Position numbers and translations under genes: made by a program. DNA of 64,000 bases from a virus: the UHGV virus genome UHGV-1366603. One strand, written 5' to 3'. The notes below the pieces were generated by a model, which did no database searches, was not told the origin of the DNA, and saw only the letters and a list, made by a program, of their open reading frames with translations. This document shows, piece after piece, positions 11,161 through 11,802 of this stretch. Position 1 is the stretch's first letter. Each line of letters begins with the position of its first letter.

Positions 11161-11802
11161 ATGGTTAACAAAAATTTCTTTAAAGAAAAATATCTTTACC
11201 CGCAAACCGAACCGGACCAGCAGGGCCGTACCCGTAAACTGGGTATTGAGCTTAACGAATTCAACGGTGACGTTGAGCTGATGAAGTTCAGCTATTCTTT
11301 CGGTAAAGGCGAAGGTTTGTATTTTACTGCTGGCTATACCGTTTGTGTGGACATTTTCGAAACGCTCCGCACCGTGTTGGTCAAGGCAGAGAAGATCGTT
11401 CACAAATGGGAAGATGCTAAAGGGAAGAAATCGCCAGTTAGCTTGCACGTAGGCCGTGATGAAAACCTGACGCCGTTCATGGCTATCAGCGGTGAGATCC
11501 CAGGAGCTGGCGCACGCCAGAAGAAATTCTACTTCACCTACCCGAAAGGTTATCGTGTTTTCCGTAATGGCCAACAGGTTTCTGATTTAGAACTGGCAGA
11601 ACGTACTCTGCGTGCGTTTATTAAGAATGCTGACATCTTCCTGGAAGATTTCCGTGACAACTATAAACCTCGCGAGTTCAACAACACTGGTGGCGGTAGC
11701 TACGGTCGTGGTGGCTATAATAGCAGCAACAACGGCGGTGGCTACAACCAGCAGGCAGCAAAAGCACCCGCACCAGACAGCAGTTTTGACGACATTATCT
11801 AA
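11161..11802 (+). CDS. hypothetical protein with SSB-like Gly/Tyr-rich linker and acidic C-terminal tip (possible ssDNA-binding or SSB-mimic protein)
   Basis: C-terminus NNTGGGSYGRGGYNSSNNGGGYNQQAAKAPAPDSSFDDII resembles the disordered linker and DFDDDIPF tip of bacterial SSB; the N-terminal domain is not recognisably an SSB OB-fold. Confidence 0.5.
   Translation: MVNKNFFKEKYLYPQTEPDQQGRTRKLGIELNEFNGDVELMKFSYSFGKGEGLYFTAGYTVCVDIFETLRTVLVKAEKIVHKWEDAKGKKSPVSLHVGRDENLTPFMAISGEIPGAGARQKKFYFTYPKGYRVFRNGQQVSDLELAERTLRAFIKNADIFLEDFRDNYKPREFNNTGGGSYGRGGYNSSNNGGGYNQQAAKAPAPDSSFDDII

Follow-up and report, generated by a model that had tools for sequence, protein, structure and literature searches.

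ChmC is a protein of nucleus-forming jumbo phages that has been described in phiKZ (gp67), PhiPA3 (gp61) and Goslar (gp176) (Enustun et al., NAR 2024; PMC11077065), and the phiKZ protein has also been named Imp6 (Kokontis et al.; bioRxiv 10.1101/2024.03.27.586873). In the present study we analysed an open reading frame (ORF) at positions 11161..11802 of a 64,000-nucleotide stretch of the virus genome UHGV-1366603 (the whole of this stretch is referred to below as the window). The best overall explanation, which we regard as highly probable, is that this ORF encodes the ChmC/Imp6 orthologue of a member of the Chimalliviridae related to phages SPN3US, phiEaH2 and Asesino, and that the protein carries a tail composed of two parts, like the tail of SSB, the bacterial protein that binds single-stranded DNA.

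ChmC was first identified among the proteins proximity-labelled by ChmA and by the nuclear RecA/UvsX recombinase. The PhiPA3 protein is a homotetramer that binds single-stranded RNA with a dissociation constant (Kd) of 58 nM, versus 184 nM for single-stranded DNA (ssDNA), and ChmC crosslinks to phage mRNAs in vivo (PMC11077065). In the PhiPA3, phiKZ and Goslar proteins the tail begins with an N/G-rich region, after which comes an S/D/E-rich stretch that the authors call an "electronegative cluster". Removal of the C-terminal 48 residues of PhiPA3 ChmC (residues 204-251) abolished both condensates and localisation to the nuclear shell, and left the tetramer and RNA binding intact; the loss of condensates was observed in vitro, without any partner (PMC11077065). 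phiKZ gp67 directly binds the nuclear import factor Imp1/PicA (gp69), at a gp67:Imp1 ratio of about 2:1, and it is through this Imp1 system that the host protein TopA enters the phiKZ nucleus (bioRxiv 10.1101/2024.03.27.586873). The gene, orf67, is essential: it tolerates no transposon insertions, and its antisense knockdown is deleterious. Whether ChmC/Imp6 acts in mRNA export, in protein import or in both is under debate, and the sole tail experiment so far took away the linker and the tip together.

The second system relevant to this locus is the SSB of Escherichia coli, which is tetrameric and whose Gly-rich linker brings about condensation (PMC12143593). Its C-terminal peptide (SSB-Ct) binds partner proteins as well as the protein's own OB domain (PMC10164576) and contributes to phase separation (PMC12143593). 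Deletion of the terminal Phe eliminates partner binding, and a Pro-to-Ser substitution (ssb-113) greatly weakens it (PMC10164576).

Assignment of the ORF to the ChmC/Imp6 family

The analysed gene and its parts are as follows (aa, amino acids; pLDDT, predicted local distance difference test score):

11161..11802, + strand: coding sequence of the ChmC/Imp6 orthologue; ATG start, open frame, 213 aa plus stop
11161..11676, + strand: nucleic-acid-binding domain with a predicted Whirly/PUR fold, residues 1-172; beta-beta-beta-alpha and then beta-beta-beta-beta-alpha
11677..11775, + strand: disordered Gly/Asn/Gln/Tyr-rich linker, residues 173-205, with QQAAKAPAP at its end; pLDDT <50
11776..11799, + strand: C-terminal tip DSSFDDII (acidic-hydrophobic), residues 206-213, an SSB-Ct-like variant lacking the Pro and identified by its conservation in the clade and in the family
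11149..11152, + strand: AGGA, a Shine-Dalgarno-like motif 8 nt 5' of the chmC ATG, read directly from the sequence

Both the product of this ORF (E=6.8e-50) and phiKZ gp67 (E=6e-80) matched phrog_3284, and an hhalign comparison of the ORF family with gp67 gave a probability of 95.5%. A family profile search of 1.84 billion representative proteins yielded 56 hits; the family set was cleared of fragments, of scrambled gene products and of one long protein that was unrelated. All 58 aligned family sequences (the window ORF, phiKZ gp67 and 56 database proteins) matched phrog_3284 and no other PHROG. In the tblastn analysis, matches of the ORF were found only in jumbo phages of the SPN3US/phiEaH2/Asesino group, with 65-73% identity over residues 1-172 (72.7% for the Asesino orthologue), and all of these relatives are annotated as "hypothetical". 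The DNA of the window is ~68% identical to that of the nearest cultured phages, which indicates that it comes from a relative of this group whose genome has not been sequenced.

The gene order points in the same direction. The PHROGs of the window are arranged in the order 5171-100-3229-3284-3209-3141, and phiKZ gp64, gp66, gp67, gp68 and gp69 match them in the same order, with gp65, among them, annotated as SbcD-like. The gene layout around chmC in SPN3US and Asesino is the same as in the window. Thus, like the known ChmC genes, the analysed gene is placed between a gp66-like gene and the gene of the nvRNAP (non-virion RNA polymerase) component gp68, two genes upstream of that of Imp1/PicA. 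Homology to gp67 through phrog_3284, synteny and the presence of a chimallin gene in the window together identify the ORF as the ChmC/Imp6 orthologue of a nucleus-forming phage.

The AlphaFold2 model of the protein, obtained with a 10-sequence alignment, had pLDDT values of 80-95 over residues 10-170 and a predicted template modelling score of 0.70. Its fold is of the Whirly/PUR type (tandem repeats of a beta-sheet plus a helix), and not an OB fold. The first-pass annotation of this DNA, made from the sequence alone, had stated that the N-terminal domain was not recognisable as an OB fold and had proposed structure prediction of residues 1..170 as a check; the prediction bore this out, returning a confident Whirly/PUR core, i.e. 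a fold type that is nucleic-acid-binding. A phmmer search with the OB domain of E. coli SSB produced no match among the ORFs of the window and of SPN3US, and Pfam gave no match to the protein at E<=1. A search of PDB sequences with the ORF returned only a spurious glycosyltransferase match (E=0.89); no ChmC structure has been solved. The solved Whirly/PUR domains, which include those of plant StWhy2 and PBF-2 p24, trypanosome MRP1/MRP2 and Pur-alpha, resemble the window protein in fold and share only 4-8% sequence identity with it. To our knowledge, none of these members of the superfamily carries a linker and a tip of the SSB type. Within the window clade eight basic residues are invariant (K8, K49, R99, K121, K122, K129, R135 and R148).

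In summary of the comparison with the described proteins, the window protein shares with PhiPA3 gp61, phiKZ gp67 and Goslar gp176 (i) membership of phrog_3284, (ii) the Whirly fold, (iii) the size class and (iv) an N/G-rich disordered tail with an acidic end. It differs from them in being only ~20% identical to the characterised ChmC proteins, in its length (213 aa versus 246-262 aa) and in its tip (SFDDII versus FDDEIPNF, FDEDMPSF and AFDGLAF). The features of ChmC/Imp6 that sequence can reveal, namely the homology, the gene order, the fold, the tail and the presence of chimallin in the genome, are all found here; conservation of the basic residues mutated in PhiPA3 is less clear (see below).

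Linker and tip of the family

The window protein ends in ...TGGGSYGRGGYNSSNNGGGYNQQAAKAPAPDSSFDDII, and its C-terminal peptide is APAPDSSFDDII. The pLDDT values of residues 173-213 fall below 50, and the last ~41 residues are therefore predicted to be disordered. Analysis of the family revealed that this tail has two compositionally different parts. The linkers are variable in length and consist to 74% of G/N/Q/S/Y, with 4% D/E. In contrast, the last 8 residues of the 60 family sequences contain 34% D/E (versus 4% in the linker) and 37% hydrophobic residues (again versus 4%). When the 60 tips were right-justified, Asp was present at -4 in 45, Phe at -1 in 26 and Pro at -2 in 24 of them. The strict SSB-Ct pattern D[DE][DE]?[ILVFM]P[FYWML]$ was found in 14 of the 60 family sequences, versus none of the 996 background ORFs (SPN3US plus window). 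The tip has been kept across family clusters with <25% mutual identity, while the linker drifts. As an architecture, a linker of this kind followed by an acidic-hydrophobic C-terminus is a rare combination, observed in one of the 179 six-frame ORFs of the window and in one of the 817 ORFs of SPN3US, the chmC gene in each case.

The similarity to SSB was evaluated with composition-preserving shuffles. The last 22 residues of the window protein, compared with the C-terminal 25 residues of E. coli SSB, gave z=3.6 (p=0.006); family members with canonical tips reached z values of ~6, and p was <0.01 for half of the family. The whole 45-residue tail of the window protein gave only z=1.6 (p=0.08), and a search of the PDB with the family profile retrieved SSB tails only at non-significant E values (0.09 and 0.96). 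The statement of the first-pass annotation that this 213-aa ORF ends in an SSB-like tail was upheld, and the C-terminus that it quoted is exact.

The C-termini of individual family members, with that of E. coli SSB for comparison, are listed below:

E. coli SSB: C-terminus MDFDDDIPF
Proteus phage 10: C-terminus KDFDDDIPF; C-terminal peptide APAPKDFDDDIPF
P0029 and P0033: C-terminus DDFDDDIPF
RAY (Erwinia): tip DFADDLPF
SA002 (Salmonella): tip GFDESIPF
FBKp24: tip DFDNDVPW
LucasX: tip GDDDIPM
FLC9: tip SEDLPF
RSL2: tip DFDDISF
SPN3US (Salmonella): tip YDEFL
Asesino (Erwinia): tip YDDFV
PhiPA3: tip FDDEIPNF, degenerate
phiKZ: tip FDEDMPSF, degenerate
Goslar (E. coli): tip AFDGLAF, degenerate

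The last eight residues of the Proteus phage 10 protein, DFDDDIPF, are identical to the last eight of E. coli SSB. The SSB-Ct consensus is also seen in P0035, and further family ends include SFDDDLPF and DFADDLPF. With some members ending in DFDDDIPF, the support at the level of the family exceeds that given by the single sequence from which the first-pass annotation started. The tips of the three experimentally studied proteins are degenerate, which may be the reason why the SSB likeness passed unremarked: no link between ChmC and SSB was found in the literature searched, and SSB is absent from two recent reviews on jumbo phages and nucleus-forming phages. The gene belongs to the known ChmC/Imp6 family, and what appears to be new is the SSB-Ct-like tip as a motif conserved family-wide. 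For the window gene itself, annotation is a routine matter, and it is at the level of the family that something is gained.

The window tip, D-S-S-F-D-D-I-I, departs from the SSB-Ct consensus (a run of Asp with Pro and Phe at the last two positions, D-D-D-I-P-F; PMC10164576), as it has no penultimate Pro and its terminal residue is Ile. It conforms to the Pro-less tip [FY]D[DES][FIMV][ILVF] of the SPN3US/Asesino clade, to which the window protein belongs and in which D210 is invariant. Before the tip, the proteins of this clade have a QQ..(S)AP.P segment, which resembles QQSAPAAP of SSB (compare QQSAPAAP...DFDDDIPF of SSB with QQAAKAPAPDSSFDDII of the window protein and QQQSAPPATTDSYDEFL of SPN3US).

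Bacterial SSB and the window protein are alike in having an oligomeric core that binds single strands (established in ChmC for the homologues), a variable Gly/Gln-rich condensation linker and an acidic tip with a hydrophobic C-terminus. They differ in that the core of ChmC is a Whirly/PUR and not an OB domain, in the preference of the PhiPA3 homologue for RNA over ssDNA, and in the absence from the window tip of the Pro and terminal Phe that SSB partners require. Since it has no OB fold, the window protein stands outside the SSB family; it probably resembles SSB in its likely mode of action, and not by descent. As regards the tail, homology to SSB is not demonstrable from low-complexity sequence, and capture of the 3' end of an ssb gene and convergence both fit the data.

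Possible functions of the tail

By analogy with its homologues, the window protein would bind single-stranded nucleic acid at the phage nucleus as a Whirly tetramer, and its tail would be needed for condensation and for association with the shell. We propose that, as in bacterial SSB, the two parts of this tail have separate jobs. The variable Gly/Asn/Gln-rich linker may provide multivalent weak contacts that lead to condensation, and the terminal acidic-hydrophobic peptide may serve as a short docking motif that makes use of its free C-terminus and its acidic residues. The docking target might be a basic and hydrophobic pocket, which could belong to the basic nucleic-acid-binding surface of ChmC itself (in cis or from one tetramer to another) or to a partner protein; candidate partners are Imp1/PicA (encoded two genes downstream), other shell components, and nuclear replication and recombination enzymes. 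A docking peptide is favoured because a generic acidic cap does not readily account for the conserved hydrophobic residues at the extreme C-terminus or, in many members, for the Pro at -2. The tips follow the phage clade and not the host, which argues for a phage partner that evolves together with the tip, or for a target in cis; in the window clade, a phage-encoded partner is more likely. The SSB-like tail thus provides a precise hypothesis, namely that the tip is a docking motif separable from the condensation linker.

Several observations weigh against this interpretation. At the level of family assignment, a pairwise BLASTP comparison of the ORF with phiKZ gp67 did not reach significance, so that the homology rests on PHROG and hhalign profiles, synteny and fold. 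As for the core, six basic residues have been mutated in PhiPA3 ChmC (K30/K48/K59 and R35/R44/R63), and the window protein has a basic residue at only two of the six corresponding positions (R25 for K30, and K42 for R44), the first repeat being poorly aligned (~20% identity); binding of single-stranded nucleic acid by the window orthologue is assumed from its homologues. In the case of the tail, its acidic end is for Enustun et al. an "electronegative cluster" of a generic kind, and the docking role is one that we infer, the one tail experiment having removed tip and linker together. Finally, the ChmC orthologues of Vibrio phages Yong XC31 and pir03 have neither a Gly-rich linker nor a clear tip (their ends are ...SEVSGSSTGW and ...VVNEDDGWE, respectively), which indicates that at least one lineage has lost or replaced the SSB-like tail and that the motif is not universal.

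An alternative, in line with the published view of the electronegative cluster, is that the tail is only a low-complexity module for condensation, whose generic acidic cap moderates non-specific binding to RNA; its likeness to SSB would then reflect convergence on an in-cis autoinhibitory peptide without a separate partner. We consider this somewhat unlikely. It agrees with the partner-free loss of condensates in vitro upon C-terminal deletion and with the behaviour of the E. coli SSB tip, which binds the OB domain of the same protein and plays a part in phase separation. There are also phage precedents: T4 gp32 and T7 gp2.5, which are OB-fold proteins dedicated to ssDNA, possess acidic C-terminal tails that fold back onto the DNA-binding surface, regulate DNA binding and recruit proteins of the replisome; in T7 gp2.5 the terminal residue is an essential Phe. 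ChmC differs from both in its Whirly fold and in its association with RNA and with the nuclear shell. However, electrostatics alone would require neither hydrophobic residues at the C-terminus, nor Pro at -2 (24/60), nor an exact DFDDDIPF, and the loss of shell localisation upon C-terminal deletion also fits the loss of a docking motif. It is very improbable that the resemblance to SSB is a functionless product of chance. The biased composition of the linker does make alignments with SSB linkers score well, and the figures for the whole tail and for the PDB search, given above, speak for chance; against this, the terminal 22 residues beat the shuffles, as did half of the family, the strict pattern was absent from the background ORFs, and the tip is retained across the divergent clusters.

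The first-pass annotation had offered a different interpretation, in which the protein is a phage ssDNA-binding protein whose tip mimics the C-terminus of host SSB and so recruits or titrates host SSB-interacting proteins; these include RecQ, ExoI, PriA, chi, Topo III and RNase HI. This is consistent with the literal host-type tips of Proteus phage 10 (DFDDDIPF) and of P0029 and P0033 (DDFDDDIPF), with the binding of ssDNA by PhiPA3 ChmC (Kd 184 nM), with the lack of a detected OB-fold SSB in SPN3US and of any SSB found in phiKZ-like phages (PMC4889955), and with the import of TopA into the phiKZ nucleus by the Imp1 system that ChmC/Imp6 binds. However, the penultimate Pro and the terminal Phe are both missing from SFDDII of the window protein, and phages of the same host carry different tips: FDESIPF (SA002) versus YDEFL (SPN3US) in Salmonella, FADDLPF (RAY) versus YDDFV (Asesino) in Erwinia, and AFDGLAF in the E. 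coli phage Goslar. In addition, RNA is the preferred ligand of ChmC, which in vivo is found crosslinked to phage mRNAs, and the phage nucleus excludes most host proteins. Mimicry of host SSB is thus unlikely for the window protein, because its tip lacks Pro and Phe and because the tips track the phage clade. The interpretation given in the first-pass annotation was, as a whole, partly supported: a family of single-stranded nucleic-acid binders and the SSB-type layout of the tail were recovered, but the protein belongs to the known ChmC/Imp6 family, in which RNA (58 nM) is preferred over ssDNA (184 nM).

The likeness of the tail to that of SSB touches on a gap noted earlier in nucleus-forming phages. 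Kazlauskas et al. (2016) could detect no SSB in phiKZ-like phages, called this surprising and suggested non-orthologous displacement (PMC4889955); according to Iyer et al. (2021), a classic OB-fold SSB is typical of group 2 jumbo phages, and not of the phiKZ group. The annotation of SPN3US includes polymerase, helicase, DprA-like, SbcD-like and SMC-like genes. No ssDNA-binding protein is present in this complete annotation, and the OB-fold phmmer search was also empty, although a search of such low sensitivity is not proof of absence. We tentatively suggest that ChmC/Imp6 could be the missing functional SSB of nucleus-forming jumbo phages, i.e. a Whirly tetramer that acts as a non-orthologous replacement, coats ssDNA and RNA in or at the nucleus, and uses its tip to recruit or hand over genome-maintenance enzymes. 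These enzymes might be phage-encoded where the tips diverge, and host SSB partners where the tip is DFDDDIPF. A coupling to Imp1/PicA-mediated import, e.g. that of TopA, is conceivable. If ChmC fills the role of SSB, the knockdown phenotypes (small nuclei and global loss of phage proteins) would need reinterpretation, and the phage nucleus would hold an interaction hub of the SSB style.

Genomic neighbourhood and additional observations

The other features of the window that are relevant to the chmC locus are as follows:

3542..5380, + strand: chimallin (ChmA), the major nuclear-shell protein; 57% identity over 590 aa to Asesino gp39
9121..10269, + strand: SbcD-like nuclease, orthologue of phiKZ gp65; phrog_100, E=3e-63; same gene order in phiKZ, SPN3US and Asesino
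10266..11102, + strand: orthologue of phiKZ gp66; phrog_3229 matches the window ORF and phiKZ gp66
11824..11845, + strand: GC-rich hairpin with a perfect 9 bp stem containing 7 G-C pairs (AGCCCCAGGATTCCCTGGGGCT), 22 nt past the chmC stop
11904..13565, + strand: orthologue of phiKZ gp68, a component of the nvRNAP; phrog_3209 matches both proteins
13599..15302, + strand: orthologue of Imp1/PicA (phiKZ gp69), the nuclear import factor; phrog_3141 matches both proteins

With the exception of a sub-threshold Metallophos match on the SbcD-like gene, Pfam gave no match to the products of chmC and its neighbours. The function of gp68 as part of the nvRNAP has been reported for phiKZ (bioRxiv 10.1101/2024.03.27.586873). 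The 101-nt spacer between chmC and the gp68 orthologue contains the hairpin, which is accompanied by a weak T-tract (TCTTATCG); to judge from its sequence, this structure may be a terminator or an RNA-stability element of an abundant early ChmC transcript.

The chimallin ORF is flanked by genes of a divergent family-B DNA polymerase and of an nvRNAP beta subunit. Its Asesino homologue, gp39, builds the nuclear shell when tagged with green fluorescent protein (PMC11724907). The window chimallin and that of phiKZ (gp54) were assigned to different PHROGs, 8316 ("unknown function") and 4795 ("nuclear shell protein"), respectively; BLASTP of the former against gp54 was not significant, and a phmmer search of the PDB gave no solved structure. 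The ChmA proteins of SPN3US-like phages are therefore missed by PHROG-based annotation.

A fold search of the BFVD revealed weaker Whirly-like similarity (target-normalised TM-score 0.44-0.64) in proteins of ~130 aa encoded by Bacillus phages W.Ph. (Gp230 and Gp212) and PPIsBest and by Aeromonas phage phiAS5. Whirly-fold proteins may thus be commoner in large phages than annotation indicates.

The C-terminal ~45 aa of the Imp1/PicA orthologue (13599..15302) form a repeat of Gly plus hydrophobic residues, ...PTNSFGSFGSFGAPDNISTAGGVFGAFGE, reminiscent of the FG repeats of nucleoporins. LG repeats are present at the matching place in the SPN3US orthologue (...GGLDPLGGLDLGGGLGGIGGNGLGNGLID), and phiKZ gp69 ends in ...KFGDNNAYDFSFQVL.

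Among the database entries related to chmC, P0012, P0020 and P0021 (e.g. from Salmonella phage SPFM9) are scrambled gene products and were left out of the alignments; ChmC peptide segments occur in them in permuted order, which probably reflects artefacts of assembly or gene calling. Another entry, P0004, is a 133-aa N-terminal fragment that is 100% identical to the window ORF and originates from a 10.3-kb contig; its NCBI title is "hypothetical protein, partial [Escherichia coli]". An E. coli assembly thus seems to contain the phage, or one very closely related to it, as a contamination or an infection, which provides a hint at the host.

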